Shown: in pieces, positions 8,253 to 44,937 of the stretch
Position numbering within the stretch: position 1 is the first letter of the stretch
Layout: each line of letters opens with the position of its first letter
Assembly (NCBI GenBank): GCA_050331295.1
Contig: JBHJGZ010000007.1
Location: forward strand, 350,422 to 414,421
DNA length: 64,000 nucleotides
Source of the DNA: Myxococcota bacterium
Lineage (GTDB): Bacteria > Myxococcota > Kuafuiibacteriia > Kuafuiibacteriales > Kuafuiibacteriaceae
Direction of reading: 5' to 3'
Notes under the pieces: generated by a model
The model's input: only the letters and a program-made list of their open reading frames with translations
Database searches by the model: none
Told to the model about the DNA's origin: nothing
Made by a program: the position numbers and the translations under genes

Positions 8253-8295
8253 CGCAGCGGACCAGGCGCATGTGAGGCGAGCCGGGAGTCAAGTC

Positions 8296-9168: not shown

Positions 9169-9186
9169 CGGTCTGACGCCAGGGAA

Positions 9187-9978: not shown

Positions 9979-9988
9979 CCGCTATCTC

Positions 9989-12361: not shown

Positions 12362-12363
12362 GT

Positions 12364-12843: not shown

Positions 12844-13057
12844 CGAGTGATGGAGGCGGCGTCGAGCCGCCCGGGCCCGGAGTCTTCGGTCTCCCCCTCT
12901 CCGACGTCAAGCCGGGGCCACCCGCCCCAAACTGCGCCGTCTCGACCGGAACTTGACCGAATGCGTTAGCGCGTCGCGTCGGTCCGAAGGGAAGACCGCA
13001 TCCAAAGTGTTCGACCTATGGCGGTTTGTTCCGCAATGAGATCTGCGTTCTCCCACC
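12844..13057. promoter_or_regulatory. divergent intergenic region upstream of the coxS operon (minus) and the MFS transporter (plus)
   Basis: 214-bp gap with no convincing ORF; presumed promoter region for the cox-like operon; no motif verified. Confidence 0.25.
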
Positions 13058-14332
13058 GTGCGTCGCGCATTCACATTGGCCGCCCTCATCATGGCGGGCG
13101 AGTCCATCTACACGCTGCCCTACGCCCTTCGTCGGGACTTCGCTCCAGTGATCCTGGAGGTCAGCGAGATGTCGTCGACCGAGCTCGGGCAGCTCAGCTC
13201 GATCTTCGGAGTGTTCGCGCTCCTCTGCTACTTCCCTGGAGGGTGGATCGCAGACCGCTTTCCCGCCCGCTCCTTGATGACCTTCTCGTTGCTCAGCACC
13301 GGCGCCCTCGGTCTGGGACTGGCCACACTTCCGAGTTTTTGGGGCATGCTGATGCTGTTCGCGGCCCTTGGTATCACCACCATCCTCACGTTCTGGGCTG
13401 CGCTCATCAAGGCCACGCGTGCTTGGGGCGGCGCCACCCAGCAAGGACTGGCCTTCGGTCTCCTGGACGGAGGCCGCGGGGTCGTCGACGCCCTCTTGGC
13501 TTCGACTGCGGTACTCACCTTTTCCCTAGTCGGAGGGGACGCAGCGGGCCTTAGGGGTGTCATCCTGCTGATGGCGTCGAGTTCGACGATGGCCGGCATC
13601 TGGGTCTGGTTTGCGGTTCGGGACGATCGGAGTGTCGAATCTTCCGCTCCCGGTGGAGCCATGCCCTCTCAACTCTTGGCGGTCGTTCGAATGCCCATCA
13701 CGTGGCTTCAAGCGGTCATCATCGTCGTGAGCTTTTCCTGTTTCTGGGGCACTTTCGACCTCTCGTCCTACGCGGTGGACAGCTTCGGGTGGTCCTCCGC
13801 GTCAGCCGCGTCTCTGTCGGCCGCAACACGATGGCTCCGTCCCATTGCCGCCCTCGGGGCCGGACTTCTGGCCGATCGAACGTCGGCCACTCGCGCCATC
13901 GTGGTCTGCTTCGTGAGTCTCATCGTCTCATACGGAGCGTTCGCGACGGTTCCGAGCATCCAAGGTCCGGTGTGGATTCTTTGGGCCAATGCATCCGCGG
14001 TTTGTCTCTTCAGCTTCGCGCTTCGAGGCGTGTACTACGCCATCATGGAGGAAGCCGATGTTCCGGTCCATCTGACCGGAACCACCGTTGGCGTCGTTTC
14101 CGTACTGGGCTTCACACCCGACATCTTCGTTCCGTTGATCCTCGGCTCCCTCGTCGACGGCTATCCAGGAGGACAAGGGCACCGACTCTTCTTCGCCGGT
14201 CTCTCCGCTCTTTGCTGCGTGGGATTGGCGGCAGCGGTGTTCGCGGCGCGCCTGACCGCGAGAAGCCGGACTTCGGCCTCCACGGCTTTGGACACCGGTC
14301 GGCCTACCGAAGCGGTTCGACGCCCTTCCTGA
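13058..14332 (+). CDS. MFS transporter
   Basis: Twelve predicted hydrophobic segments and MFS-like loop motif (GGWIADRFPARS); 424 aa. Confidence 0.7.
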   Translation: MRRAFTLAALIMAGESIYTLPYALRRDFAPVILEVSEMSSTELGQLSSIFGVFALLCYFPGGWIADRFPARSLMTFSLLSTGALGLGLATLPSFWGMLMLFAALGITTILTFWAALIKATRAWGGATQQGLAFGLLDGGRGVVDALLASTAVLTFSLVGGDAAGLRGVILLMASSSTMAGIWVWFAVRDDRSVESSAPGGAMPSQLLAVVRMPITWLQAVIIVVSFSCFWGTFDLSSYAVDSFGWSSASAASLSAATRWLRPIAALGAGLLADRTSATRAIVVCFVSLIVSYGAFATVPSIQGPVWILWANASAVCLFSFALRGVYYAIMEEADVPVHLTGTTVGVVSVLGFTPDIFVPLILGSLVDGYPGGQGHRLFFAGLSALCCVGLAAAVFAARLTARSRTSASTALDTGRPTEAVRRPS

Positions 14333-21466: not shown

Positions 21467-23190
21467 AGTTTGAAGTCTGGGCTCCCCATGCCCGAGGCGT
21501 AGAGCTCTGTCTGAAAACCGGCGAGCGCCACATCATGGAGCCAACCTCCCCAGCCGGATGGTGGAGTATCGACATTCGAGGCCTGAGCGGGGAGATCCGA
21601 TACGGCTTTTCGATAGATGGCGACGTCCCACTGCCGGACCCGAGGGCTCGTAGAATGCCCGATGGCGTGCATGCGCTCTCCGGCATATGGGATGCCTCCT
21701 CGTTCGAATGGACCGATCGAGGGTTTCGTGCCGCCCCGCTCTCCAGCGGGCTCATCTATGAGCTGCACGTCGGTACATTCTCCGAGGAAGGAAGTTTCGA
21801 TGGCGTGATCACCAAGCTGGACCATCTGGTCGGGCTCGGCGTGACCCATGTCGAACTCATGCCGGTCAACAGTTTCCCGGGTGCCTTCGGGTGGGGGTAC
21901 GACGGCGTCGGTCTCTTTTCGGTCTTCGAACCCTACGGCGGCCCCGATGGTCTTTGTCGACTCGTCGACGCCTGCCATCGGCGCGGTCTCGCGGTGTTGA
22001 TCGACGTTGTCTACAATCATCTCGGTCCGGAAGGAAACTATCTGGCCCGATACGGGCCCTACTTCACCGACCGGTACGAGACTCCGTGGGGCGCGGCAGT
22101 GAATCTCGATGACCGAGGTTCGGACGAAGTACGACGCTTCTTCTTGGACAACGCCAAGATGTGGGTCCGAGACTTCCATGCCGATGGATTGCGGATCGAC
22201 GCGATCCACGCACTCGCAGACGGTTCTGCGAAACATCTATTGGAGGAGATGGCCGAGGAATTCGAGTCTCTCCAAGCGGAAGTCGCGCGGCCTCTGGTCC
22301 TGGTCGCCGAGAGCGACTTGAACGACCCGCGGGTGATTCAGAGGCGACAAGCCGGCGGATTCGGGATGGATGCACAGTGGACCGACGACTTCCACCACGC
22401 CGTTCATGCCCTGATGACCGGAGAACGCCAGGGTTACTACGCCGACTTTGGCACCTGGGCGGAGGTTGCCAAGAGCCTCGAAAGCGCTTTCGTGGTGGAC
22501 GGGGTGCCATCCCGCTTTCGAGGGCGGAGACACGGTCGGTCCGTCGGCACGCTGACCGGCCATCGGTTTGTCGTCTATACCCAGACTCACGACCAGGTCG
22601 GAAACCGGGCTACCGGGGACCGTCTTGGTCACCAACTCTCGGAGGGCCGCCTCAAGATGGCCCTGGCTCTTTTGCTCATGAGTCCTTTCGTCCCCATGCT
22701 GTTCATGGGGGAGGAATGGGCAGCATCGAGTCCATTTCAGTTCTTCTGCGACTTCGGTGACCCGTCGCTGCGGGAAGCGGTCAAAGAGGGTCGCAAGAAG
22801 GAATTCGAAGCTTTCGACTGGAACATCGAGAGCCTTCCCGACCCGCTGTCGCCGGAGACCTTTGGTCGCTGCCGGCTCAATTGGGGCGAGCTGCAGGAGG
22901 CGGGTCACCGCCGCGTTCTGGAATGGGTCCGAGAGCTGGTGAGGCTACGTCGAAGTTATCCGGAATTGACGGATGGCGCCCGAGGTCGCTCGAAGGTCAG
23001 ATTCGGACCGCACTGGTTGACCATGCGGCGTGGCCGGGTCTCCCTCGCCGTCAACACCGGAGTTGATGAACTCGGCTTTTCGGACCTTCCGGGCGACGTG
23101 TTGCTCGCGCACGCGGGAGAACGTCGGTCCGATGACGGCGACGTCGTCGTGGGACCAGATGGGGTGGTCATCGTCGCTGACTCGACATGA
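21463..23190 (+). CDS. treZ: malto-oligosyltrehalose trehalohydrolase
   Basis: MKFEVWAP N-terminus; GH13 motifs DVVYNHLGPEGN, GLRIDA, QTHDQVGNR; 575 aa. Confidence 0.9.
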   Translation: MKFEVWAPHARGVELCLKTGERHIMEPTSPAGWWSIDIRGLSGEIRYGFSIDGDVPLPDPRARRMPDGVHALSGIWDASSFEWTDRGFRAAPLSSGLIYELHVGTFSEEGSFDGVITKLDHLVGLGVTHVELMPVNSFPGAFGWGYDGVGLFSVFEPYGGPDGLCRLVDACHRRGLAVLIDVVYNHLGPEGNYLARYGPYFTDRYETPWGAAVNLDDRGSDEVRRFFLDNAKMWVRDFHADGLRIDAIHALADGSAKHLLEEMAEEFESLQAEVARPLVLVAESDLNDPRVIQRRQAGGFGMDAQWTDDFHHAVHALMTGERQGYYADFGTWAEVAKSLESAFVVDGVPSRFRGRRHGRSVGTLTGHRFVVYTQTHDQVGNRATGDRLGHQLSEGRLKMALALLLMSPFVPMLFMGEEWAASSPFQFFCDFGDPSLREAVKEGRKKEFEAFDWNIESLPDPLSPETFGRCRLNWGELQEAGHRRVLEWVRELVRLRRSYPELTDGARGRSKVRFGPHWLTMRRGRVSLAVNTGVDELGFSDLPGDVLLAHAGERRSDDGDVVVGPDGVVIVADST

Positions 23191-23212
23191 GTCGAATGAG
23201 GGCGCCGCTTGC

Positions 23213-25039
23213 CTAGGACTGGGTCGACTCGGCGAGTGCGACGGACCGCTGCTTCTCCCACATTTCCGCGTACCGCCCCTGTCGCGCCAGAAGCTCCTCG
23301 TGGGAGCCCGCTTCGACGATCCTTCCGCCATCCATGACCAGGATCTGGTCCGCGTCGACGATGGTCGACAATCGATGAGCAATCATCAGCGTCGTTCGCC
23401 CTTCACTCGCCGCCCACATTTCGCTTTGGATCTCTCGTTCGGTGGCCGAGTCGAGGGCGGACGTGGCTTCGTCCAAGATGAGGATAGACGGCTGCTTCAG
23501 AAACACCCGGGCGATGGCCACGCGCTGCTTTTCGCCGCCGGAGAGCTTCAGTCCCCGCTCCCCGACCATCGTATCGTAGCCCTCGGGTGCGCTCGCTATG
23601 AAATGATGGATCTGGGCCTTCGCGGCCGCTTCCTCGATTTCTGCCTGCGTTGCGGCAGGCCGAGCGTATCGCAGGTTGTAGCTGATGGTTTCGTTGAACA
23701 ACACGGTGTCTTGGGGAACGATCCCGATTGCTCGACGCAAGGAGGCTACGGACAGCTCTCGAATGTCGGTGCCATCGATGGTGATGCGCCCATGACCGGG
23801 GTCATAGAATCGGAAGAGCAAACGCGCCACTGTCGACTTCCCCCCGCCGCTCGGTCCAACCAAGGCCACACGGTGTCCGGCCGGAATCTGGAACGAAAGG
23901 TCCCGCAGGATTCGGCGTTCCGGGACATACCCAAAACTCACGTTCTCGAATCTCACGGACCGAGGCCCGGGCCCCAACGGGCGGGAATTGGGATGGTCGA
24001 CGATGGCCGGCTGCTCACCGAAGAGGCTGAACATCTGCTCCATGTTCACGAGGGACTGTTTGACGCTGCGGTACACCCAGCCGAAAAGATTGAGCGGCTG
24101 CGCGAGCTGGATGAGATATGTATTCACCAGCACGAAGTCGCCGACACTCAGTCGACCGTCGACGATTCCGCGTGCGGCCAAGTACATGAGAAGAGTCACG
24201 CCACCGCCGATGATCAGGGCCTGTCCGCTGTTGAGAGCGGCCAGGCTCGACTGACTCTGAATCGCGGCTCGTTCGTATTCCTGAAGCGATCGGTCGTACT
24301 GCATCACCTCGAAACGCTCGTTTCCGAAGTACTTCACCGTCTCGAAATTGAGCAGGCTATCAATGGCACGGGTGCCGGCTCTGCTATCGGCCTCGTTCAT
24401 GCGACGACGGAATTTGATTCGCCATTCGGTCGTGGCGATTGTGAAACCCACGTACGCGACCACCGTCACGCCGGTGATCACGGCAAATGCGGGTTCAAAA
24501 CGACTCAGCAAGACCGCGAGGACGAGGACGAGTTCGAAGAGAGTCGGAATGACGTTGAACAGCGCAACGCCCAGAAGGCTCTGTATGGCGCTCGTTCCCC
24601 GCTCGACCGCGCGAGCCAAACCTCCCGTCTGCCGTGCCAGATGAAAACCGAGGCTCAGGCGATGGAGGTGTTCAAAAACTTCCAAGCCAGCCCGTCGCAT
24701 CGCTCGCTGGCCAACCTTCTCGAAAACCGCATCCCGCACCTGGTTGAAGAAGAGCGAACCGAAGCGAGCACTACCGTAGGCGATGATCATGGCGACGGGA
24801 ATCGTCACGGCATCATCTCCGCTCAGCGCATCGACCGCGCGCTTGTAGAAGATGGGCACCCAGACATTCAGACCCTTGGCGATCAGGATCGCAGTCATCG
24901 AAAGAACGACGCGAACTCGCAGACCCCAGGCATCCTTCGGCCACAGGTAGGGAAGGAGCTTCGCGATGGCGTGCACCGACCCTTTCATCGCCGCTCGGCA
25001 TACCTCGAAGGAGCTCGAACTGCGAGCAGGGGTCGGCAC
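23213..25039 (-). CDS. ABCB-type ABC exporter, fused permease and ATPase, Atm1/HMT-like
   Basis: N-terminal LLPYLWP motif typical of Atm1-like exporters; six TM segments; Walker A GPSGGGKST; signature LSGGEKQRVAIAR. The start may instead be at MKGS (24988). Confidence 0.85.
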   Translation of the reverse strand: MPTPARSSSSFEVCRAAMKGSVHAIAKLLPYLWPKDAWGLRVRVVLSMTAILIAKGLNVWVPIFYKRAVDALSGDDAVTIPVAMIIAYGSARFGSLFFNQVRDAVFEKVGQRAMRRAGLEVFEHLHRLSLGFHLARQTGGLARAVERGTSAIQSLLGVALFNVIPTLFELVLVLAVLLSRFEPAFAVITGVTVVAYVGFTIATTEWRIKFRRRMNEADSRAGTRAIDSLLNFETVKYFGNERFEVMQYDRSLQEYERAAIQSQSSLAALNSGQALIIGGGVTLLMYLAARGIVDGRLSVGDFVLVNTYLIQLAQPLNLFGWVYRSVKQSLVNMEQMFSLFGEQPAIVDHPNSRPLGPGPRSVRFENVSFGYVPERRILRDLSFQIPAGHRVALVGPSGGGKSTVARLLFRFYDPGHGRITIDGTDIRELSVASLRRAIGIVPQDTVLFNETISYNLRYARPAATQAEIEEAAAKAQIHHFIASAPEGYDTMVGERGLKLSGGEKQRVAIARVFLKQPSILILDEATSALDSATEREIQSEMWAASEGRTTLMIAHRLSTIVDADQILVMDGGRIVEAGSHEELLARQGRYAEMWEKQRSVALAESTQS

Positions 25040-25112
25040 TCGGCGCAGCTTCGAGAGCGTTTGTCCCTCGAGATTGTTGCCCTCCTCCGGGTAGCCTGTT
25101 CAATCTGTTGGA

Positions 25113-25715
25113 GTGACGGGTCAGTCCTATCCTGCCGCGATCGCGTTGGCCCTCGGTACCGCAGCCTGCGGCGGGCCATTTTTCGAGTCCGACACCGACG
25201 CGTCGTCTGCGGACCCCCCGCCCATGGCGCCGGACAGAGAACAAGAGTCCGTGCCTCAGGTCGGCGATGCTCCCGAGGGGAACCAAGACAATACCGGTGC
25301 GCGACTCGAGGAACGCGTCATCGAGTTGGTCAATCAGCGGCGCTCGGAAGGAAGCACCTGCGGCGGAGAACTCATGCCGCCGGTACCGTCCCTATCGGAG
25401 GACAGCCGCCTGAGCGCAGCTGCGCGTGCACATTCCGAAGACATGGCGGCGAGGAATTACTTTTCGCACCGATCTCCAGAGGGCGAAGAGCCCGCCGATA
25501 GAGCCAACTCAGCTGGGTATGGCGGCGGTTTTGGTGGGGAGAACATCGCCGCGGGCCCCTTCACGGCAGAAGACGTCATGGTCCTCTGGATGCAGTCGCC
25601 TGGCCACTGCCGCAACATCATGCGTCCTCGGTTCGAAGAGATCGGCGTCGGCTACGGCCGGAGCAGCAACGCCCGCTACGGACACTACTGGACTCAGAAG
25701 TTCGGCTCCCGCTGA
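25113..25715 (+). CDS. CAP/SCP (PR-1-like) domain lipoprotein
   Basis: Lipobox LGTAAC and CAP-like motifs (HSEDMAARNYFSH, GHYWTQ); 200 aa. Confidence 0.55.
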   Translation: MTGQSYPAAIALALGTAACGGPFFESDTDASSADPPPMAPDREQESVPQVGDAPEGNQDNTGARLEERVIELVNQRRSEGSTCGGELMPPVPSLSEDSRLSAAARAHSEDMAARNYFSHRSPEGEEPADRANSAGYGGGFGGENIAAGPFTAEDVMVLWMQSPGHCRNIMRPRFEEIGVGYGRSSNARYGHYWTQKFGSR

Positions 25716-25734: not shown

Positions 25735-26577
25735 TCACCGCGACCCAATCAGGTCACGGATGAAGTTGGGCATCTCGAACGCCGCTTTGCACACGCCAGG
25801 ATTCAGGTATCTCAGCCGACTCGCATGCGCCGACAAACGGTCCAGGTTCAGAGGCCAAACCTCGCCTTCGGGCCGCGCCAGCGTCCAGCTCCACATACCC
25901 GCCCCGTAGATGGGCACATACCCAATGTACGGTCGGACGTCGGCAAACAGCGCTCGGAGGGCCAACTGAACATCGCGGAACACCTCCGCTTGAAGGACCG
26001 GCGACTCGCTTTGAAGGGCAAATATGCCTCGCGGTTTGAGGATTCGCCGGACATCCGCATAGAACGTGTCGTTGAACAACCCCTCGGCTGGGCCAACCGG
26101 GTCCGAGCCGTCGAGGATCACCACGTCGAAGGTTTGGTCGGGGGCCTGCGCTACCCACTTCACGCCGTCCTGAATGCGGAGTTCGAGCCTCGGATCATCG
26201 AAATGGGATGCGATGCCAGGCAGAAACTCGCGACAGACATCCACGACTTGGCCATCGATTTCCACCATGACCACTCGGTCGACCTGGGGGTGACTCAACA
26301 CCTCTCGGATGGTTCCACCGTCGCCTCCACCGATCACCAAGACGTGTTTCGGTTCGGCGACGGCACACATCGCGGGATGCACCAGCATCTCGTGATAGAA
26401 GAACTCATCTCCTTCGCTGGTCATGAACAGGCCGTCGAGAACCAGAGTACGCCCGAAGAAATCGGTCTCGATGAGGTCGATCTGCTGAAAAGCCGACCGA
26501 TTCGAAGAAAGCGTCCGACGAACCTTCACCGAGAACCGCACGCGGTCCTTGAACTCTTCCTCATACCAGTTGCCCAT
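25735..26577 (-). CDS. speE: spermidine synthase (polyamine aminopropyltransferase)
   Basis: VLVIGGGDGG motif and spermidine-synthase tetramerisation N-terminus; ATG at 26577 (MGNWYEEEF) lies 2 nt after the speH stop. Confidence 0.9.
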   Translation of the reverse strand: MGNWYEEEFKDRVRFSVKVRRTLSSNRSAFQQIDLIETDFFGRTLVLDGLFMTSEGDEFFYHEMLVHPAMCAVAEPKHVLVIGGGDGGTIREVLSHPQVDRVVMVEIDGQVVDVCREFLPGIASHFDDPRLELRIQDGVKWVAQAPDQTFDVVILDGSDPVGPAEGLFNDTFYADVRRILKPRGIFALQSESPVLQAEVFRDVQLALRALFADVRPYIGYVPIYGAGMWSWTLARPEGEVWPLNLDRLSAHASRLRYLNPGVCKAAFEMPNFIRDLIGSR

Positions 26578-26579
26578 GG

Positions 26580-26996
26580 TCAGCCTTCGTTCGATGCCTG
26601 AGGCATCCACGCACCATCAAATTGATGATCGCTCACTCTAATCGATCGCTCCCACCCCATCCCGCGGACCACGGTCAGCAGCTCGGCGCGCTCCGGCTGC
26701 AGGCCCTCCATCAGTCTTCGATGGGCGAGTTCCGGATGGCAGTCTCCGCACGTATAGAAGTCGACCGCCGCGTAGCCAGCCTCTGGCCACGTATGAATGG
26801 ACAGATGAGATTCTTCTATCACCACGACTCCGCTGATGCCTTGTGGGGAGAAACGGTGAAACACCGCTGCGACGACCGTCGCGCCGGCATCCTCGGCCGC
26901 CCGTGTGAGCAGTCTCTGAATGATATCCTTGTCGTTCAGTAGTGACGTACGGCAGCCGTGGTACTCGGCGAGCAAGTGTTGCCCACGTGTATCCAT
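26580..26996 (-). CDS. speH: S-adenosylmethionine decarboxylase proenzyme (pyruvoyl-dependent, class I)
   Basis: Self-cleavage site motif EESHLSIHTWPE; 138 aa. Confidence 0.9.
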   Translation of the reverse strand: MDTRGQHLLAEYHGCRTSLLNDKDIIQRLLTRAAEDAGATVVAAVFHRFSPQGISGVVVIEESHLSIHTWPEAGYAAVDFYTCGDCHPELAHRRLMEGLQPERAELLTVVRGMGWERSIRVSDHQFDGAWMPQASNEG

Positions 26997-35332: not shown

Positions 35333-35674
35333 ATGATTGAGCTTCCCTCCTCAGCTCCGATGGCCCGTTATCAAAGCTATATCCAGGAGCTAGAGGCCTT
35401 ACATGGCTGGTCGGGAGTGGACCTCGTCCACAACTGCTTCCTGATGGGTGAGGAGGTGGGGGAACTGTTCAAGGCGGTTCGGAAATACGAAAGTCTGTTC
35501 TCGGACGCCCGTGTCGGCTCTGTAGGCGACGCTGGGAGCGCCAAGACCGAAGTCGCGGAAGAGCTCGTGGACGTTTTCAACTACCTTTTGGCCATCGCGA
35601 ACCGTCTCGACATCGACCTCGAGGCCGCGTTTCGGGAGAAAAATGAAGTCAATCAGGGCCGCAGGTGGACATGA
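35333..35674 (+). CDS. MazG-like nucleotide pyrophosphohydrolase domain protein
   Basis: MazG EExxE motif (MGEEVGELFKAVRK ... EELVDVFNYLLAIA); 113 aa. Confidence 0.7.
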   Translation: MIELPSSAPMARYQSYIQELEALHGWSGVDLVHNCFLMGEEVGELFKAVRKYESLFSDARVGSVGDAGSAKTEVAEELVDVFNYLLAIANRLDIDLEAAFREKNEVNQGRRWT

Positions 35675-35698: not shown

Positions 35699-36931
35699 TC
35701 AGTACAGTATCCGGCTCTTGATCGTGCCAGGGAGGTTTTGAAGTTGTTCTTGAAGAGCTGGTGAGGTCTCTCGGTCGACATCGATGACGACATAACCGAG
35801 CTCGGGTGTCGTCTGAAGATATTGACCCAGAACGTTTGCCTCTGTCTCTGCGATGGCTCGGTTTATTGCCCCCAATACGCCGGGTTGATTTCGGTGAATG
35901 TTGAGCAGACGATGAGTGTTCTCTTTCACTGGCAAACTGATGTTGGGGAAGTTGACGGCTCCTAGGGTCACGCCTTGGTCGCTGTACTGAACCAACTTGT
36001 TCGAAACTTCGACCCCGATGTTTCGTTGGGCTTCGGTCGTGCTTCCTCCGATATGTGGGGTCAAAATCACGTTGGGCAGCCCCTGCAACGGACTCTCGAA
36101 ACGTTCTTCCTTGGACTTGGGCTCCCTAGGAAAGACGTCGACGGCGGCTCCCAACAGATGACCCGACCGGATGGCCTCTGCCAGGTCTTCGATCACCACC
36201 ACGTTCCCTCGAGAGGCATTGATCAAACAGGCTCCTTTCTTCATCTGGGCCAGCCTGCGATGGTCGATCATGTTGGCGGTGTCCGGCGCCTGTGGCACGT
36301 GAAGCGTGACCACGTCACAATCGGGAAGAAGCTCTTCCAGACTGTTTATCTGGCGTGCGTTTCCCATGGGGAGCTTCGGCTCGATGTCGTAATACAAAAC
36401 GCGTAAGCCGAAGGCTTCGGCCAGGATGGAGACCTGCGATCCGATGTGGCCATAACCGACGATGCCCAATGTCCGCCCGCGGAGTTCGTGGCTCCCCGAG
36501 GCCGACTTGAGCCATTCTCCACGATGTGCCGCCGCGTTCTTGTCCCCCAGCCCCCGCAGCAACATCACGGTTTCGGCCAAGACGAGCTCCGCGACACTTC
36601 GAGTGTTCGAATGTGGGGCATTGAAGACCGGGATGCCTCTCGAGGCAGCCGCTGCAAGATCGACTTGATTGACGCCGATGCAAAAGCATCCGACCGCCAT
36701 GAGGCGACGTGCCTTCTCTACCACTTCGTCGCTCAGCTGGGTCCGGGAGCGAATGCCCACCATGTGCGCACCCCGCAGGGCTTCTTCGAGCTCTCGACCC
36801 GTCAGTGACGTCTCCAGGCGTCGAACATTCGCGTATCCAAAGCGCGCCAGGTTCTCCACGGCGGTCTCGTGAATGCCTTCGAGCAACAAGATGTGAATTT
36901 TCTCTTTCGGGAAGGAAAGCTTTTTGCTCAC
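35699..36931 (-). CDS. serA: D-3-phosphoglycerate dehydrogenase with C-terminal ACT domain
   Basis: NAD-binding GIVGYGHIGSQV; catalytic His/Glu region; C-terminal ACT domain; 410 aa. Confidence 0.9.
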   Translation of the reverse strand: MSKKLSFPKEKIHILLLEGIHETAVENLARFGYANVRRLETSLTGRELEEALRGAHMVGIRSRTQLSDEVVEKARRLMAVGCFCIGVNQVDLAAAASRGIPVFNAPHSNTRSVAELVLAETVMLLRGLGDKNAAAHRGEWLKSASGSHELRGRTLGIVGYGHIGSQVSILAEAFGLRVLYYDIEPKLPMGNARQINSLEELLPDCDVVTLHVPQAPDTANMIDHRRLAQMKKGACLINASRGNVVVIEDLAEAIRSGHLLGAAVDVFPREPKSKEERFESPLQGLPNVILTPHIGGSTTEAQRNIGVEVSNKLVQYSDQGVTLGAVNFPNISLPVKENTHRLLNIHRNQPGVLGAINRAIAETEANVLGQYLQTTPELGYVVIDVDRETSPALQEQLQNLPGTIKSRILY

Positions 36932-38325
36932 GGAAACACCTTTCCTGGATTCAACAACCCCTCGGGGTCCATCGCATTCTTGAGGCTTCGAAACAGCGAC
37001 AACTCAGCGGGGCTGCGACTGTACTCGAGGTAGTCGCGCTTGAGGAGTCCGATGCCATGTTCAGCCGAAATGCTTCCACGATGGGCACGGACCAATTCGA
37101 ACAGGACGCGGTCGGCTTGATGGCAGACGTCCAAGAAAGCCTGAACCTCCCAGTCTTCGGGCTTCATGATGTTGATGTGCACGTTGCCGTCGCCGACATG
37201 CCCGAACAGGTATGCGCCAAAATGGGGATATCGTTCAGCCAGGGTCCGTTCGAGATCGTCCACGAAGTCCGGAAGTCCCGAGACTGGAAGGGCCACGTCG
37301 TTCTTGTGCAGAAAACCGGCCTTGGACAGCGATTCACTGATGCCCTCCCGGACTGCCCAAAGGTCTCTGGACTGCTTCGACGACTCTGCCAACACCCCGT
37401 CCGACACCAGTCCCTTGGAAAAAACAGATTCCAGCCAGTTCTCGGCCCCCGAACCCGAGTCGAGCGGCTCGAGTTCCACCAACACGTACGCCGCACTCGG
37501 CCGGGAAAAAGGTGAGGTTGCAGCCCCTTGGGCGCTCACGACGTCCATACACCGATCACTGAGAAACTCGAATGCCATCAGCTGAAAGCCAGTCGCCGAC
37601 CGAGCACTTCGGAAGAGCTCCAACGCCGGCCGGAGGCCGTCCACCGCGAGAAGAGCGACCCGGGTTTCGGAGGGAAGACGAGTGAGCTTGAGGGTGGCGG
37701 CGGTGATGACGCCAAGCGTTCCTTCGCTTCCGATGAACAGATGGCGAAGGTCGATACCTGTGTTGTTCTTCTCCAGCGCTCCGTTGAGAACGAGCGTTTC
37801 ACCGGTCATGGTCAAGACCTCGAGGCCGAGTACCCACTGGCGGGTCAAACCGTAGCGAACCACTCGAATGCCCCCAGCGTTGGTGGCGATGTTTCCGCCA
37901 ATCTGACTCGAGCCCGCGGAGGCAAAATCCACCGGCCAGGTGAGCCCCTCGGTTGCCGCATGCTCGTGCACTGCCGCGGTGACGGCACCTGCGCCCACAC
38001 GAACCGTCCGGGCGACCGCGTCCACCGGATCCAGCTTTCGGATTCGGTCCAGGCTCAACACCACTTCTCCTCGCGCCGCGACGGCGCCTCCCGCGAGGCC
38101 CGTTCGCCCGCCCGACGGAACGACGGCCCAGCGATGCTCGCGGGCGAGCCGAATGAATCGGGCTACCTCATCAGAGTCTCGAGGAAAGACGACCGCACTC
38201 GGCTCCGGGTGGTAGACCCTGGTCCAGTCGCGTCCGTAGGTTGCGAGATCGGAAGCCTCCACCGAAACAAAGCCGGAATCGAAATGGGTCTCGATGAGCT
38301 TCAGACCCGCGTTGCTCAGGGTCAT
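36928..38325 (-). CDS. FAD-linked oxidase, D-2-hydroxyacid / D-2-hydroxyglutarate dehydrogenase-like (GlcD family)
   Basis: FAD_binding_4 domain (AVVPSGGRTGLAGGA) plus FAD-oxidase C-terminal domain; 465 aa; ATGA overlap with the serA start. Confidence 0.8.
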   Translation of the reverse strand: MTLSNAGLKLIETHFDSGFVSVEASDLATYGRDWTRVYHPEPSAVVFPRDSDEVARFIRLAREHRWAVVPSGGRTGLAGGAVAARGEVVLSLDRIRKLDPVDAVARTVRVGAGAVTAAVHEHAATEGLTWPVDFASAGSSQIGGNIATNAGGIRVVRYGLTRQWVLGLEVLTMTGETLVLNGALEKNNTGIDLRHLFIGSEGTLGVITAATLKLTRLPSETRVALLAVDGLRPALELFRSARSATGFQLMAFEFLSDRCMDVVSAQGAATSPFSRPSAAYVLVELEPLDSGSGAENWLESVFSKGLVSDGVLAESSKQSRDLWAVREGISESLSKAGFLHKNDVALPVSGLPDFVDDLERTLAERYPHFGAYLFGHVGDGNVHINIMKPEDWEVQAFLDVCHQADRVLFELVRAHRGSISAEHGIGLLKRDYLEYSRSPAELSLFRSLKNAMDPEGLLNPGKVFP

Positions 38326-38411
38326 GGCGTGTTCTCAACCGGATTGCCGGGACGAGCAAGCAAAGCCGTCCTTGACGAACTGAATCTTCCGAGGGCGCGG
38401 AAGCTACCCGG

Positions 38412-39245
38412 TCAGGTCGGCTTTCGGAAGTGCAGGATCCCCCAGGCCAGGTGACCGGCGTGACCGGCATCGACCCAGTGCTGTAGCCCGGCCTTCATGT
38501 TGGCCAGATATTCCGGACGGCAGGTCGCGCTGAGCTTCGTTTCGTTTTCTTCCAGAACCCGCTTCACCCGCGCGTAGTGGCGAGGCAACTGATGAGAATG
38601 ATCCTCCACCGAGACTTCGACGAGACCAAGCTCTTTCGCGAGCCGACGATACAGCTGAAAAGACCCCATCTCTTCCAAATGAATGCGAGCGAGGACCGGC
38701 CCCAGAACACCACTCGGACAGTCATCTGATTGCATCGGGTCGGTGAAGATGAAGTCGCCTCCCGGTCTGAGCACCCGGAAGACCTCTTGCAACACTTGAG
38801 CTTTCCGTCCGCTGTGCAGGATACTATCCTGACACCAAACCACATCATACTCGGCGTCGGCCTCGGGGATCGACTCGAACGCTGCGTCGACCACTCGGAT
38901 CCGGTCGGCAAGGCCCGACTCCTCGTTCATCGAGCGATTTCTTTGATTTTGCGTCTCGCTCAGGTTCAGCGCGACAACCTGCTGAAGGTTATAGGTCTGG
39001 GTCAGAAATCGAGCGGCGCCGCCGTATCCGGCGCCGATGTCCAGCAGCCGCGTGTCTGGCGTCCAGCTGACCTTCTCTGCCATGGCCTGCACCGTTCGAC
39101 GACTCGCATCCCGAATCGGCTCGTCGTCGGAGCGATACAGCCCGACGTGGATATCCTCTCCACCCCACACCTGAAAGTAGAAGTTATCGGCGTCGTCGCT
39201 ATTGTAGTATTCCTGCGCGACCTTGGTGATTCCGGTATGTGTCAT
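38412..39245 (-). CDS. sarcosine/dimethylglycine N-methyltransferase-like class I SAM methyltransferase
   Basis: SAM motif LLDIGAGYGGAARFL; N-terminal YYNSDDADNFYFQVWGGEDIHVGLY segment as in glycine-betaine-pathway SDMTs; 277 aa. Confidence 0.65.
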   Translation of the reverse strand: MTHTGITKVAQEYYNSDDADNFYFQVWGGEDIHVGLYRSDDEPIRDASRRTVQAMAEKVSWTPDTRLLDIGAGYGGAARFLTQTYNLQQVVALNLSETQNQRNRSMNEESGLADRIRVVDAAFESIPEADAEYDVVWCQDSILHSGRKAQVLQEVFRVLRPGGDFIFTDPMQSDDCPSGVLGPVLARIHLEEMGSFQLYRRLAKELGLVEVSVEDHSHQLPRHYARVKRVLEENETKLSATCRPEYLANMKAGLQHWVDAGHAGHLAWGILHFRKPT

Positions 39246-39314
39246 GGCCCATTCTCTTCGGCACCTCTCGGCACCATGATGTCTTCAACGAGATTGTGAA
39301 AAGCGGGAATCGAC

Positions 39315-40136
39315 TCACTCATCCACGTTGTATTCGGCTTCTTGTACGTAGCGCTTAGAGGCCACATGAATGAAGAAATCGGGGTCGTCGGTACGATAGG
39401 TCTCGTGAAAGTCTCCGAACGTTTCGACGTGCTGAAATCCAACCTCGAACAAGAGTCGCCGCACATAGTTCCTGCGAAGCGGAAACATGTTCAGATGGAA
39501 GGTGGACTGGTCCGGAAAGGTGTAACGAAATCGAGCCAAGCCATCGTCGACATAGTCAGGCTCCGCGCTTACATTGTCGCCACAGTAGTAATATTTATGC
39601 TTCGTCGTGAAGCCGCGGTCGAGTATCGCGTCGTAGTTTCGCTGATCGAGGATCAGCAGCCCATCATGCCGCAGGGCAGCGTAGAACTCCGCCAGGGTCT
39701 TTCTTCGATCACGCTCTGAAAACAGATGCGTAAATGAGTTTCCTAGACAGATCACGGCATCGTATTTCCCGTACAAATCTCGATTCAGCCACCGCCAGTC
39801 TGCGTGGACGGTCTGAAGAATCTGATTGTGTTTCCGACCGTTCTCGAATGCCTTGGCCAACATTTCCGGTGAACCGTCGACAGACGTGACCTTGAAGCCT
39901 TCCTTCAGCAAGCGCACCGAATGGAAGCCCGTTCCGGTTGAAACGTCCAAGATCTTGCGCTTGCCATGTTGCCGGAGGGTGTCGATGAAAAAACGACCCT
40001 CGCTCTCGGCTCGGGCTTCCCAGTCGATGAGCAGGTCCCACTTCCCCACGAAAGAATGGACGTATTCGTTGGTGTATTGGTCCGTATCTCGAACCTCGAT
40101 CGGGTTGCCTTCGTAAACTTGTTGTTGGTCCTTCAC
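39315..40136 (-). CDS. glycine/sarcosine N-methyltransferase (GNMT family)
   Basis: Strong resemblance to glycine N-methyltransferases (ILDVSTGTGFHSVRLLKEGFKVTSVDGSPEML, ICLGNSFTHL); 273 aa. Confidence 0.7.
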   Translation of the reverse strand: MKDQQQVYEGNPIEVRDTDQYTNEYVHSFVGKWDLLIDWEARAESEGRFFIDTLRQHGKRKILDVSTGTGFHSVRLLKEGFKVTSVDGSPEMLAKAFENGRKHNQILQTVHADWRWLNRDLYGKYDAVICLGNSFTHLFSERDRRKTLAEFYAALRHDGLLILDQRNYDAILDRGFTTKHKYYYCGDNVSAEPDYVDDGLARFRYTFPDQSTFHLNMFPLRRNYVRRLLFEVGFQHVETFGDFHETYRTDDPDFFIHVASKRYVQEAEYNVDE

Positions 40137-40181
40137 AGGACGCTCCTTCCACCTGGTGTCGGTCTCGGTTACCTATGCAGC

Positions 40182-41354
40182 CTAGGTTCTTACGTCAACC
40201 GGGCGTTTCCCGCCGACACGGCATGGGAGGTTGGCACGCAGCCGCTGAGCCGCCTCTCGAGCCTCTGGTGCGGTGTCCGCTAACACCGTGATGTGCCCCA
40301 TTTTTCGGCCGGCGCGCGCTTCATCCTTGCCGTACAAGTGAAGGAACGAGCGGCCATCTTTCAAAATGATCGACCAATTGGGCTCCTTCCCTCCGCGCCA
40401 AAGATCTCCCATCAAATTCACCATCGCTGCAGGCTGTTTCATCCGCAGCGACGGAATCGGAAAGCCGCAAACGGCTCGCAGCTGAAGCTCGAATTGGCCG
40501 ATGTTGAATGCGTCGACCGTCAAATGACCGCTGTTGTGGGGCCTAGGAGCCAGTTCATTGATCAGGAAGGATCCATCTCGAAGATGAAACATCTCGACAC
40601 ACATGACGCCACGAACATCGAGAGCGGTCATCACCCCTTTGGCGATGTCGAGGGCGGTGTCGGCTTGTTTCGCGGGCAGCTCGGCCGGACAATGTGTAGT
40701 GTCCAAGACATGGTTGGCGTGGAGGTTCTCGAAAACGGGATATGCGGCCACCGAGCCGTCTTCGCCTCGGCCCGCTACTACCGAAACTTCTCTTTCGAAG
40801 TCGATGGTGGCCTCGGCGATCGCGACCGGTCGGTCGTGTTCGGACCAGGCTTTCGTCGCGTCGTCGTCGGGACGGAGCCGCCGTTGACCTTTCCCATCAT
40901 AGCCAGACCGAACCGTCTTGAGGACGATGTCGCCCCCCAAAGCCTCTCTTGCTGCATGAAGCTCTGAGACCGATTCCACGGAGCGGAACGGCGTTACCGG
41001 GAAACCAAGCGTTCGAAGGGTCGTCTTCTCCTGGAGACGGTCCTGCGCTATCGACAGCACGCCTGGTCGCGGGAAGACGGGGACGCGTTCGGAACACCAT
41101 TCAGCGGTCCTTACGGGCACGCTTTCGAACTCGTACGTGACAAGGTCCACGCTTTCCGCGAATCGACGCACCCGCTCGAGATCTCCGTAGTCGCCGACGA
41201 TTTCTTCGTTGGCCGCCTGGCCAGCTGGTCCTCGGGCGTCGGGTGCGTAAACCACCGTCTTGACCCCGAGTCGATGTGCCACCAAGGCGAGCATCCGACC
41301 CAGTTGTCCACCTCCGAGGACTCCGAGACGCAACTGAGAGAGCGCTCGATTCAT
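40182..41354 (-). CDS. purK: N5-carboxyaminoimidazole ribonucleotide synthase
   Basis: ATP-grasp enzyme with PurK N-terminus ([14 protein letters not shown]); 390 aa. Confidence 0.9.
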
Positions 41355-41851
41355 GGAAGCGACTCGTTGATCACGCGCTCTCTTTGAGCATTTCGGTACT
41401 CACGAAGCCGCTCCACGATGCGAGGCTCGCTGCGACCCAAGATGGAGGCGGCGAGAAGGGCGCCGTTGATCGCGCCGGCCTTGCCTATCGCCATCGTGGC
41501 CACCGGAATTCCGGCGGGCATCTGATTGATGGAAAGCAGGGAATCGAGGCCGTTCAGGGCTCTGCTCTTCACCGGAACGCCAATGACGGGAAGCAAGGTC
41601 TCGGAGGCGGTCATTCCGGGGAGGTGAGCCGCCCCTCCGGCTCCCGCGATGATGACAGACAAGCCACGTTGCTCGGCGGTTCGGGCATATTCGACCATCA
41701 GTTCGGGCGTCCGGTGGGCCGAGACAACACGACATTCATGACCAATTCCGAGCTCTTGTAGGGTCTGATGGGCATACACCATGCAAGCGTCCCAGTCACT
41801 CTTCGAGCCCATGATGACGCCGACCCTCGGCGCCTCGGAATCATGGAGCAT
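41351..41851 (-). CDS. purE: N5-carboxyaminoimidazole ribonucleotide mutase
   Basis: PurE motifs [11 protein letters not shown] and SAHRTP; probable start at MLHDSE (41851) rather than the ORF-track 41893. Confidence 0.9.
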
Positions 41852-41899
41852 GACCGCATGATGGCTGGGGACATCCATTTGTCCAACCCTCAATTTGGC

Positions 41900-43453
41900 T
41901 CAAATTCGCGTTCCTTTACCCACACGCGCCTTGAGGGATCGCACTCGCGAGCGGATCGCATCCAGCTCCTCCGGCTTCTTGCGGTCGATGTTCTTCAGTT
42001 GGAGGGCCATCCGCTGGTTGCTCTGTAGCTGATCGCGGTGACGAACCAAGAAATCCCAGTAGAGCGTCGTGAACGGACAGGCCTCCTCCCCGACTGCTTT
42101 CTTTGGATCGTACGGACAAGTCGAACAGAACGGACCCATCTTTTGGATGTATTTTCCGGTTGCGACATACGGCTTCGTCCCAACGATCCCTCCATCTCCA
42201 TACTGACTCATGCCCAGCGTGTTCGGGAGAGAGACCCAGTCGACCGCGTCGACGTACATTTTCATGTGCCACTCGTGGAATCGGTAGGGATGCACCCCCC
42301 ACAACTGAGAGAAGAGCCCCAACACCATCAGGCGATGGATGTGATGAGCGTAACCGATCCGCAAGACTGCCTGCATTGAATCGTGCACGCACTTCATGTC
42401 GGTTTGCCCATCCCAAAAGAAAGAAGGCAGCTCGGCTTTTGCCCGCAGCGCATTCTTTCTTGCATAGCCTGGCATATGACTATTGTATATTCCTCTTATG
42501 AACTCTCGCCAACCCAGAATCTGCCGGACAAATCCTTCTACGCTGTTCAATGGTGCTTTCTGCTGTTCGTAGGCGCGCACCGCCCGGTCCACACAGTCGC
42601 GGGGCGAAAGGAGCTTCGTGTTGAGGAGCGCAGACAAACGGCTGTGAAACAACACTGCGTCCCCCTCCGTCATCGCGTCTTGGAAACGTCCAAAATTGGG
42701 TAAGGCCTTCTTGATGAACCCATCGAGGTGCTCGAGGGCGGCCGCACGGGTCACCGGAAGACTGAAGGTTCGCGCATCACCGGGATTCTCGGGGAACCGA
42801 TTCTCGACCATCGAGATGACCTGCTTCGTGATGGTGTCCGGCTCGAAACTCGGCAACGGACGAAGGTCGGACGGCGGACCATCGTTCCCAAAAGACTCTC
42901 GATTTGCTTTGTCAAAGTTCCACTCGCCCCCCTCCGGCCGCCCGTCTTCGTCGACGAGAATCGAGAAGTCTTTTCTCAGCTTTCGATAGAAATATTCGAG
43001 CACCAGCTCTTTCTTGCCTCGGCTCCAGTCTTCAAAAGCTTCGCTGCTGCAATAAAAGTGTCGATCGGGGCGTAGTTCGATGTCGATGCCGCGATGTTCG
43101 GCCGCAGCAAAGACCTGTTCGCGAACCCGATGGTCGCCCGGCTCGACGAGCACCAGTCGTTCCGGTCCCAGCCTTTTGATGTCTTGGCTGAGCACCTCTC
43201 GAAAGGAGGAACCTCGGTCCTTCTCCGCCGATGCGTGGAGTTGGTGGTAAGCGATGGCACGCCCGGCATCGCGCTGCTGAGCGGCGAAGTGACGCATGGC
43301 GGCGAGAAAGAACGTCACCTTGTGCTGGTGAACATGAGCGGTCTCCTCCTCAACCTCCGCCATCCACACCCGGTCTCGTTCGTTGTCGAAGTCATCGAAC
43401 ACCGCACTCTCGGCGTCGAGCTGGTCGCCGAAGATGACGACGAGGTTTCGCAT
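41900..43453 (-). CDS. cryptochrome/photolyase family protein, FeS-BCP / (6-4) photolyase-like
   Basis: PhrB-like N-terminus MRNLVVIFGDQL; FAD-binding domain; C-terminal Cys cluster (CSTCPYDP...ACPF) consistent with a 4Fe-4S FeS-BCP photolyase. Confidence 0.8.
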   Translation of the reverse strand: MRNLVVIFGDQLDAESAVFDDFDNERDRVWMAEVEEETAHVHQHKVTFFLAAMRHFAAQQRDAGRAIAYHQLHASAEKDRGSSFREVLSQDIKRLGPERLVLVEPGDHRVREQVFAAAEHRGIDIELRPDRHFYCSSEAFEDWSRGKKELVLEYFYRKLRKDFSILVDEDGRPEGGEWNFDKANRESFGNDGPPSDLRPLPSFEPDTITKQVISMVENRFPENPGDARTFSLPVTRAAALEHLDGFIKKALPNFGRFQDAMTEGDAVLFHSRLSALLNTKLLSPRDCVDRAVRAYEQQKAPLNSVEGFVRQILGWREFIRGIYNSHMPGYARKNALRAKAELPSFFWDGQTDMKCVHDSMQAVLRIGYAHHIHRLMVLGLFSQLWGVHPYRFHEWHMKMYVDAVDWVSLPNTLGMSQYGDGGIVGTKPYVATGKYIQKMGPFCSTCPYDPKKAVGEEACPFTTLYWDFLVRHRDQLQSNQRMALQLKNIDRKKPEELDAIRSRVRSLKARVGKGTRI

Positions 43454-43503
43454 GCTGGCCTCCTTAGCCGAAAGTTGCGCGACCCTGCATGAGTTGCGCG
43501 ATT

Positions 43504-44937
43504 TCAGAGGATAGGCGCGAAAAGACGCGCGACCCCGTCCCTGAGTCTGCACGGGAGCGAACGGGCGTCCAGGTCCGCGGCGGTGAGCCGCCGTGCAGTC
43601 CCGATCCGATGGTCCACGAGGTCCGCCATCTGGCGGCCGAAGAGCTGGTCATAGGCTTCCACATCCAGTTCGAAGTTCAGTCGATACGACCGAGGGTCCC
43701 AGTTGCCCGAACCAAACAAAACCCAACACTCGTCGACCACCATCAACTTGGAATGGTCGAACGGCGGCGGACTCAGCCACACTCGACAGACGTCGACCAT
43801 GGTTCGGATCTGACCCCACATCGCCCATTGAACGAAAGGAAGGTTGCAACGAGCCGGGATGACGACATCGACCTGGACACCTCGAAGAGCGGCCGTAGCC
43901 AGGGCGGATTGCAGCGACTGGTCGGGAAGGAAATAGGGGGTCAAGATACGGACGCTCCGCTCCGCGCAAGCCAACCCGGCGAGATAGGCCCCGAGGAGTT
44001 GGTCCAGATCTTCGTCCGGTCCATCCGAGATGGTGCGCGCCCAGGGAGCCGAGGGTTCGCATCCGCTCCCTGCATCATTGACCGTGGGCAAGTCGAACCG
44101 GTCCCCGCCTGCGAACGTCCAATCTTCCCAGAAGACCTGGTGCAACTGGCCTACCAACGGCCCCATGACGCGAAAGTGCAGATCTCGCACCGGTCTTTTG
44201 GGCCGAGCCGCAAGCTGATGTCCCACCCTGATGTTGATGCCGCCGGTGAACCCCACCTCGTCGTCGACCACCAGGATCTTGCGATGGGTCCGCAGATTCA
44301 GGTACGCAAACGACCTCAGGCCCGCCGGCAGAAAACGACGAACCCGAACGCCTCTTCGTCGGAGGGTGCGAAGGACGGTGGGCCAGCTGTACCGAAGTCC
44401 GGCGTCGTCGGCCAGCACCCGAACCTCGACCCCGCGAGCTTGGGCCTGGGCCAATCGCTCGATGAAGCCCTCTCCGGCCAGGTCGCGGTCAAAAATGTAT
44501 GTGGACAGGCTAATGGAGGATTCAGCCCGTTCGATGGCCTCCCACATGGCGGGATAGGCCTCGTCGCCATCCACCAGGACGTCGACGCGGGGGAGTGCAA
44601 CCCTAGGAAAGCGGCAAAGCGCGTCCAGACTGCGGACCAATCCGGGTGGACCGGAGACCGGGGTCGGTTTTGGGGGCGGCGACGGTGCGGGACGAGGTCC
44701 ACGAAGCCGAAAAGCGGTACGGCGGATCCGGTTGATCCCGAGGGTAAGGTACAGGAGTGCGCCCACCAGCGGCGCGAGGACGATCACGCCGAGCCAGCCC
44801 GCTGCCGCTCGCTCGTCGCGCTTGGTCAAGATCACGTGAACCGATGCGCCCAGAAGTCCCCCGACCGACACCAACGCCACCCCATAGGCCCATGGCGTGG
44901 GGACTCCCAGGGCCAAGAATGACACAATGCGCTCCAC
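43504..44937 (-). CDS. cls: cardiolipin synthase (PLD superfamily)
   Basis: Two N-terminal TM helices and two HKD motifs (HRKILVVDD...GGINI; HSKLMVVDE...GSGNWD); 477 aa. Confidence 0.9.
   Translation of the reverse strand: MERIVSFLALGVPTPWAYGVALVSVGGLLGASVHVILTKRDERAAAGWLGVIVLAPLVGALLYLTLGINRIRRTAFRLRGPRPAPSPPPKPTPVSGPPGLVRSLDALCRFPRVALPRVDVLVDGDEAYPAMWEAIERAESSISLSTYIFDRDLAGEGFIERLAQAQARGVEVRVLADDAGLRYSWPTVLRTLRRRGVRVRRFLPAGLRSFAYLNLRTHRKILVVDDEVGFTGGINIRVGHQLAARPKRPVRDLHFRVMGPLVGQLHQVFWEDWTFAGGDRFDLPTVNDAGSGCEPSAPWARTISDGPDEDLDQLLGAYLAGLACAERSVRILTPYFLPDQSLQSALATAALRGVQVDVVIPARCNLPFVQWAMWGQIRTMVDVCRVWLSPPPFDHSKLMVVDECWVLFGSGNWDPRSYRLNFELDVEAYDQLFGRQMADLVDHRIGTARRLTAADLDARSLPCRLRDGVARLFAPIL

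Follow-up and report, generated by a model that had tools for sequence, protein, structure and literature searches.

Bacteria can make glycine betaine de novo from glycine with two enzymes, glycine/sarcosine N-methyltransferase (GSMT) and sarcosine/dimethylglycine N-methyltransferase (SDMT), which together carry out three methylations that depend on S-adenosylmethionine (SAM). The glycine skeleton for this pathway derives from serine via serine hydroxymethyltransferase (SHMT), and SHMT and glycine cleavage also supply the one-carbon units from which SAM is regenerated. On a stretch of 64,000 nucleotides (nt) from an uncultured Myxococcota bacterium (contig JBHJGZ010000007.1; the whole stretch is called the window below), the genes for GSMT and SDMT are directly followed by a gene for an enzyme that depends on flavin adenine dinucleotide (FAD) and by serA, the gene for D-3-phosphoglycerate dehydrogenase. 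The question raised by this locus is what the four-gene string means, i.e., whether a cassette that consumes glycine has been joined functionally to the entry of the pathway that makes its precursor or whether the two pairs of genes are mere neighbors.

Our best explanation, to which we assign a probability of roughly 60%, is that the region is a composite operon made from two older two-gene modules, in which the betaine cassette (GSMT-SDMT) was inserted once into a purE-purK-d2hgdh-serA arrangement and is transcribed together with it. Here, d2hgdh denotes the gene of the FAD enzyme, which we assign below to the D-2-hydroxyglutarate dehydrogenase (D2HGDH) type. The parts were already known, as was the reading of SerA and D2HGDH as a functional couple, and what is new is the clade-specific merger of the betaine cassette with this serine-entry pair.

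An earlier interpretation made from the letters of the window (the sequence-only reading) had placed four minus-strand open reading frames (ORFs) here, all of which exist at the positions that it gave and with the identities that it proposed (Table 1). It had let the string begin at GSMT, but it is immediately preceded, on the same strand, by purE, purK, and a photolyase-related gene (DPRP), with a gap of 45 nt between purK and GSMT. The ORF listing and our family scans thus reveal one unbroken minus-strand run of genes, DPRP-purE-purK-GSMT-SDMT-FAD enzyme-serA. The overlap between the FAD-enzyme gene and serA had been described as ATGA; its length of 4 nt is correct, but the letters are GTGA, with a GTG start codon for serA.

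Distribution and history of the junction

The four-gene string is confined to one uncultured Myxococcota clade, represented by the window and by the loci L092, L085/L001 (which are the same lineage), L091, and L093. The order purE-purK-GSMT-SDMT-FAD enzyme-serA is kept in the window, L085, L001, and L091. In L093 and L092, the four genes are preceded by the end of an upstream gene at the contig edge, which tblastn identified as purK in L093 and which in L092 is a cut, unannotated 5' ORF that we assume to be purK. The locus L088 is an empty site lacking the cassette: it contains genes for a phospholipase D and DPRP followed by purE and purK, and then after 4 nt the FAD enzyme and serA, without any methyltransferases.

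We built a bootstrapped neighbor-joining tree of the FAD enzyme together with SerA and, separately, a tree of GSMT together with SDMT. The tree of the FAD enzyme and SerA has the topology ((window,L092),L085),(L091,L088), with L091 and L088 as sisters at 100% bootstrap, while the methyltransferase tree recovers the cassette of the clade as monophyletic at 100% and with the same internal order as the flank tree. This agreement between cassette and flanks indicates one acquisition followed by vertical inheritance. The locus is most simply read as a cassette that was inserted once in the ancestor of the clade, descended vertically, and was later lost a single time, in L088; its spread by homologous recombination between relatives is an alternative that should be kept in mind. 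Base composition gives no signal of recent transfer (GC content at third codon positions of 0.65–0.70 for GSMT and SDMT vs 0.66–0.71 for the flanking genes). Since the adjacency within the clade is a single evolutionary event, its recurrence among the members cannot be used as a statistic.

Across at least four divergent lineages, the proteins of the string are ca. 70–81% identical, and the region beyond serA is rearranged. In the window, a small MazG/PRA-PH-like ORF is followed by genes for the small and large subunits of methylmalonyl-CoA mutase and then by meaB. In L088, the mutase genes are missing after serA, and the segment there (8626–12137) instead encodes a protein resembling ketopantoate reductase, a toxin-antitoxin pair of the RES/Xre type, and an exchanger for Na+/H+, so that the string is more stable than the regions around it. 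Homologues of the MazG/PRA-PH-like gene are found in all clade members (65–69% identical); in L085 (8699–9037) and L001 (14345–14680) they point the same way as serA, and in the window, L092, L088, and L091 the opposite way, i.e., a short segment has been inverted locally among the clade members. At the other end of the string, the purK product of the window (390 aa) has a C-terminus that is 4–15 residues longer than those of its relatives (375–386 aa), and the gene reads, at 40182–40200, across a CGGTTGACG element that is intergenic in L085 and L092.

How unusual is this arrangement? We surveyed by tblastn the best 80 of at least 594 GSMT loci, each with 10 kb on either side, from GTDB species representatives. 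In 78 of these 80 loci, which come from many phyla, GSMT is immediately followed by SDMT, while the FAD enzyme and serA were found near GSMT in a single one (L001), which also belongs to Myxococcota and shows synteny with the window over the entire string. The most common neighbor of GSMT-SDMT is a BCCT betaine transporter (30/80 loci, e.g., L028 at 8042–9574 or L002, another Myxococcota genome, at 11626–13146), and no such transporter is encoded in the window or in the string of the clade. In 28 loci, mainly of Nitrospirales and some Actinomycetes, GSMT and SDMT are fused in one ORF of ca. 555–595 aa that carries both NCBIfam domains (examples are L061 at 10001–11665, L029 at 9932–11629, L031, and L034), whereas they are separate proteins in the window. 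A candidate for a second, independent link between GSMT and serA in L018 was rejected because the match upstream of GSMT, at 26% identity, is PdxB and not SerA.

The two-gene layout of the cassette, GSMT then SDMT, is the one known from Halorhodospira halochloris, Aphanothece halophytica/Halothece, Methanohalophilus portucalensis, and Thioalkalivibrio versutus; what differs here is that it sits inside a purEK-d2hgdh-serA string rather than alone or beside a BCCT transporter. GSMT has been transferred horizontally among phyla, Myxococcota included (PMC10742547).

The FAD enzyme and serA form a two-gene unit of their own that occurs across Myxococcota without methyltransferases. The two genes are adjacent in ten out of ten contexts that we examined gene by gene, and the closest homologues of the FAD enzyme all come from Myxococcota. 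In L086, L087, L089, and L090, serA lies immediately downstream of the FAD-enzyme gene or convergent to it, in unrelated surroundings that contain no methyltransferases. A metagenome scan of 48 FAD-enzyme loci found serA close by in 19 and the full string in one (L093), while GSMT and SDMT were present in none of the 47 others and in none of four Myxococcota contexts that we looked up. GSMT-SDMT and FAD enzyme-serA are, in short, two independent two-gene modules.

Identity of the enzymes

As judged from sequence comparisons, the methyltransferases group with characterized betaine enzymes. GSMT matches the NCBIfam equivalog model NF051855 at 477 bits (cut-off 350) with model positions 1–258 of 259 aligned, and its best solved structure is the M. 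portucalensis enzyme MpGSMT (5h02; 401 bits, 65% identity). Residues for SAM binding, substrate binding, and methyl transfer have been assigned from the MpGSMT structure (PMC5146677), and all nine are kept in our protein (Y26, R43, L132, N134, H138, R167, Y185, Y206, and M218; window position minus 1) and invariant in an alignment of diverse GSMT homologues (A1). SDMT matches NF041675 over its full length at 382 bits (cut-off 550), and its best solved structure is SDMT of Galdieria (2o57; 256 bits, residues 8–275).

Could these proteins instead be natural-product or other small-molecule methyltransferases that merely resemble GSMT and SDMT? This view can point to the SDMT score below the NCBIfam cut-off and to source annotations that read only "class I SAM-dependent methyltransferase". 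However, every GSMT-adjacent SDMT that we tested falls below the same cut-off of 550 (L052 6539–7372 and L036 4522–5355 among them), including those of Halothece (364 bits), Dactylococcopsis (368 bits), and the fused protein of Haloechinothrix (431 bits), so that automatic annotation leaves such proteins as generic methyltransferases. With orthologues from Halothece and Dactylococcopsis at 364–368 bits, the cut-off is drawn too tightly for a lower score to decide the matter. We therefore ruled out the sub-threshold score as an argument against SDMT identity: orthologues from the genus of the characterized A. halophytica strain score even lower and are likewise excluded. GSMT exceeds its own equivalog cut-off with every substrate and cofactor residue of MpGSMT kept, identity to the corresponding proteins from Halothece and Dactylococcopsis is 70–71% for GSMT and 52% for SDMT, and the GSMT-SDMT pair adjoins BCCT betaine transporters elsewhere, all of which makes a different function hardly credible. 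The GSMT and SDMT assignments of the sequence-only reading, for which it had suggested a check by hidden Markov models against characterized enzymes, are thus upheld by the NF051855 match, the 65% identity to MpGSMT, and the conserved pairing. The methyltransferases do not cluster with non-betaine enzymes, with GSMT keeping all active-site residues of MpGSMT.

The third protein of the string, a candidate for the 2-hydroxyacid dehydrogenase subfamily of VAO/PCMH flavoproteins, is built from the Pfam domains FAD_binding_4 and FAD-oxidase_C. At 311 bits, 3pm9 is its best match among solved structures, with human D2HGDH next at 300 bits, and lower scores go to glycolate oxidase (206 bits), LctD (179 bits), and LDHD (176 bits). 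In human D2HGDH, residues R386, H434, H441, E475, and H476 are common to all 2-hydroxyacid flavoenzymes, while T390, K401, Y432, and N443, which hold the C5-carboxylate of D-2-hydroxyglutarate, are replaced in GlcD and D-lactate dehydrogenase (D-LDH) (PMC7801405). The catalytic and zinc residues are kept in the window enzyme as R326, H376, H383, E422, and H423 and are invariant in 120 homologues. At the four specificity sites, the alignment places S330, K341, F374, and N385, of which K341 and N385, i.e., the C5-carboxylate lysine and asparagine, are again invariant in the 120 homologues. The changes of T390 to serine and of Y432 to phenylalanine are both conservative and also found in 3pm9, while the same four sites read Y, T, A, and L in the glycolate oxidase structure 9qgz. 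The sequence therefore favors an enzyme of the D2HGDH type rather than GlcD or D-LDH, with K341 and N385 speaking for this assignment and two of the four specificity residues differing.

A glycolate or D-lactate oxidase at this position could instead feed betaine synthesis directly, via glyoxylate that is transaminated to glycine. The best NCBIfam match of the FAD enzyme by score is indeed glcD (TIGR00387, 284 bits), one homologue (P0197) is annotated as "glycolate oxidase subunit GlcD" in one source, and two of the four human C5-carboxylate residues are changed (T390 to S, Y432 to F). Nevertheless, the protein stays far under both GlcD cut-offs (284 vs 568 bits for TIGR00387 and 186 vs 897 for PRK11230), and family scans and gene calls revealed no GlcE or GlcF genes among its neighbors in the window. 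GlcD and D-LDH also have small or hydrophobic residues where K341 and N385 are invariant (PMC7801405; 9qgz alignment), and the pairing with serA extends throughout Myxococcota with or without betaine genes. We consider such an oxidase highly improbable, and the clustering with GlcD or Dld that the sequence-only reading had named as speaking against its own proposal is not seen, given a score of 300 bits for human D2HGDH vs at most 206 for the others and the conserved lysine and asparagine. Partner genes for electron transfer flavoprotein (ETF) or ETF-ubiquinone oxidoreductase (ETF-QO) are absent from the window.

SerA scores 639 bits against PRK11790 (cut-off 404) and 491 bits against E. coli SerA (1yba), with 2-Hacid_dh and 2-Hacid_dh_C domains and a single C-terminal ACT domain. 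The serine-binding site as previously defined in the E. coli enzyme (PMC6300728) consists of H344, N346, and N364, whose counterparts here are H347, N349, and N367, i.e., the allosteric site is intact. Reduction of 2-oxoglutarate is a trait of type II 3-phosphoglycerate dehydrogenases, for which coupling of SerA to D2HGDH has been described (PMC9504171), and serA is among the most common neighbors of d2hgdh in bacteria (PMC8651671). The coupling was reported for Pseudomonas stutzeri and P. aeruginosa by Zhang et al. 2017, as cited in these two papers. The coupling on which the sequence-only reading drew, with D-2-hydroxyglutarate (D-2-HG) formed as a by-product of SerA and recycled by an adjacent D2HGDH, is thus present in the literature (PMC9504171, PMC8651671).

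The pair of the window resembles the Pseudomonas system in that a type II, ACT-domain SerA stands beside a single-subunit FAD enzyme of the D2HGDH type; in the window the two genes overlap by 4 nt, and their pairing is kept across Myxococcota. It differs in that the Myxococcota pair is known here from its genes, has serine and phenylalanine at the T390 and Y432 sites, comes without ETF/ETF-QO genes in the window, and is preceded by genes for betaine synthesis.

Probable co-transcription and the possible meaning of the linkage

The genes of the string lie on one strand with short gaps and no terminator between them, as a single operon would. The gaps for GSMT-SDMT, SDMT-FAD enzyme, and FAD enzyme-serA are 69, 86, and −4 nt in the window and −4/35/−4, −8/7/8, and 4/8/−4 nt in relatives, and upstream of GSMT the gap (45–137 nt) exceeds these gaps of the relatives throughout. 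A TTGACG-N17-TAnnnn element upstream of GSMT is shared by four out of four clade sequences, even though overall identity in the intergenic alignment is just 52%; the −35 hexamer of the window lies within the 3' end of purK. A generic promoter scan did not list this candidate because its −10 hexamer is weak. Together, the small gaps in relatives and the kept element suggest co-transcription, so that GSMT-SDMT-d2hgdh-serA are probably transcribed together, from a promoter that we infer upstream of GSMT. The MazG-like ORF on the opposite strand likely marks the 3' end of the transcription unit in the window. Terminator-like sites occurred between the genes only at chance frequency in our scan, and neither the three gaps nor the sequence 3' of serA is predicted to fold more stably than shuffled sequence. 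Searches with Rfam at gathering thresholds gave no match in the 64 kb, including no SAM, S-adenosylhomocysteine, or glycine riboswitch.

A type II SerA produces one D-2-HG per turnover, which needs to be re-oxidized. In the mechanism that we propose, SerA would reduce 2-oxoglutarate to D-2-HG and thereby pull the unfavorable oxidation of 3-phosphoglycerate forward, while the flavoenzyme would return D-2-HG to 2-oxoglutarate, so that the pair would serve as the entry to the phosphorylated serine pathway. A horizontally mobile betaine cassette would have entered between purK and d2hgdh in the clade ancestor and have been inherited vertically since, with one loss (L088). Transcription of the four genes from the promoter just upstream of GSMT, possibly with additional read-through from purEK, would then let serine-entry capacity and D-2-HG clearance rise along with betaine synthesis. 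Because glycine and one-carbon units both come from serine, established pathways imply that SerA would gate the glycine carbon of betaine and could also supply its methyl carbons.

A related logic is seen in Halothece sp. PCC 7418, a betaine maker in which phosphoglycerate dehydrogenase (PGDH), phosphoserine phosphatase (PSP), and SHMT are up-regulated upon salt acclimation (PMC9374696), in line with the need of betaine synthesis from glycine for more flux through these three enzymes. There, the response is a regulon of dispersed genes revealed by RNA-seq, whereas here the genes would be linked physically, in a single operon-like string. Coordinated supply of serine and glycine for betaine, as the sequence-only reading had proposed, is therefore plausible in view of a string that is kept with short gaps at ca. 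70% identity and of the Halothece salt response, but it has to be scaled down to an arrangement of one clade that arose once and that has a member without the cassette (L088).

Several observations weigh against a composite operon with a common purpose. Its origin is a single evolutionary event, so that its persistence could be operon inertia, and in L088 the d2hgdh-serA pair evidently works in the absence of the cassette. Among the best 80 of at least 594 GSMT loci, no further one has serA, a D2HGDH gene, or another close homologue of the genes flanking the cassette in the window nearby, and the juxtaposition is lacking in 78 GSMT loci outside the clade. The 64-kb window lacks glyA, metK, ahcY, and a betaine transporter gene as well as metF, and none of the SAM-cycle and one-carbon genes metK, ahcY, glyA, and metF belongs to the ten most common neighbor families of the 80 loci. 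With serine in place of T390 and phenylalanine in place of Y432, the FAD enzyme would not necessarily prefer D-2-HG to D-malate or D-lactate. The serine site of SerA is intact, which means that more transcription need not give more flux. Finally, the candidate promoter has a weak −10 element, and the window gaps of 69 and 86 nt would be long enough for separate promoters.

Much of this would be expected from neutral hitch-hiking, i.e., if a mobile cassette had landed in the purK-d2hgdh junction and was simply carried along, with the two modules being controlled and used independently and their adjacency having no physiological meaning. Such a scenario fits well with a linkage that has a single origin, is absent from all other GSMT and FAD-enzyme loci examined, and coexists with a sister lineage (L088) that is cleanly without the cassette. 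It would also match the company of the cassette elsewhere (a BCCT transporter, not serine genes), the proneness of GSMT to horizontal transfer (PMC10742547), and the two longer gaps within the string of the window. What it explains less readily is the retention of the string across at least four divergent lineages (ca. 70–81% protein identity) despite rearrangement downstream of serA. Furthermore, the SDMT-FAD enzyme gap is just 7–8 nt in the relatives with the −8/7/8 and 4/8/−4 sets, which leaves no room for a separate promoter, and there is no terminator-like structure between the modules. We consider hitch-hiking a doubtful explanation, albeit one with considerable weight.

The composite operon would gain a more specific meaning if the GSMT promoter were osmotically controlled and also drove d2hgdh-serA, in which case commitment of carbon to serine and removal of D-2-HG would scale with osmolyte demand in a self-supplying betaine operon. 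We put this version forward only tentatively, as its chances are clearly below even. In 2007, Waditee et al. reportedly described in J Biol Chem the co-expression of a serine-pathway enzyme with the betaine methyltransferases of A. halophytica. A self-supplying operon would be the natural counterpart of such engineered combinations of a serine enzyme and betaine methyltransferases, and it would be the first case of a SerA-D2HGDH couple recruited to a stress regulon.

More generally, if the linkage is functional, an acquired osmolyte cassette would have been wired to the precursor supply of its host merely by its insertion site. The clade would then be a natural setting in which to ask if the SerA-D2HGDH couple turns limiting once serine flux is as high as de novo betaine synthesis requires, and pathway engineers would find in it a compact set of four genes for betaine production from central carbon. 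If the linkage is not functional, the junction would still be a clean, dated example of the gain and loss of a cassette at a defined chromosomal site in uncultured Myxococcota.

Layout of the locus and neighboring genes

The coordinates of the string and of the genes around it are compiled in Table 1. Public gene calls for an identical sequence, on contig CAZSEC010000002.1 of the Myxococcota metagenome-assembled genome GCA_964605845.1, agree with the ORF coordinates found here.

Table 1. Features of the betaine-serine locus in the 64-kb window (positions count from the first letter of the window).
Feature	Position	Strand	Details
GSMT, glycine/sarcosine N-methyltransferase	39315–40136	minus	273 aa, GTG start, AAGGAG ribosome-binding site upstream
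SDMT, sarcosine/dimethylglycine N-methyltransferase	38412–39245	minus	277 aa
FAD-dependent D2HGDH-type enzyme	36928–38325	minus	465 aa
serA, type II (E. coli-type, ACT domain) D-3-phosphoglycerate dehydrogenase	35699–36931	minus	410 aa, GTG start
purK	40182–41354	minus	NF004676 above cut-off
purE	41351–41893	minus	TIGR01162 above cut-off
photolyase-related DPRP gene	41900–43552	minus	upstream of purE
MazG/PRA-PH-like small ORF	35333–35674	plus	113 aa, gene call and weak Pfam matches
candidate promoter, purK-GSMT junction	40137–40198	minus	−35 TTGACG 40198–40193, 17-nt spacer, TAGGTA 40175–40170

Two pairs of ORFs on opposite strands deserve mention in this context. The phospholipase D gene of the window (43504–44937, minus strand, 477 aa) is mirrored by a plus-strand ORF of equally 477 aa (43489–44922), and an 823-aa plus-strand ORF without any family match (23030–25501) lies opposite an ABC transporter gene (23213–25039, minus strand). 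Such long antisense ORFs mirroring real genes are probably spurious and a product of high GC content.

At a distance of ca. 12 kb from the betaine genes, treY (18815–21466, plus strand; TIGR02401, 929 bits) and treZ (21463–23190, plus strand; TIGR02402, 714 bits), which overlap by 4 nt, encode a second pathway to a compatible solute, namely trehalose. Between these trehalose genes and the mutase operon lie the genes for a CAP-domain protein (25113–25715, plus strand) and for spermidine synthase (25735–26610, minus strand), itself a SAM-using enzyme. A GlgB-like branching enzyme is encoded at 60454–62436 on the minus strand.

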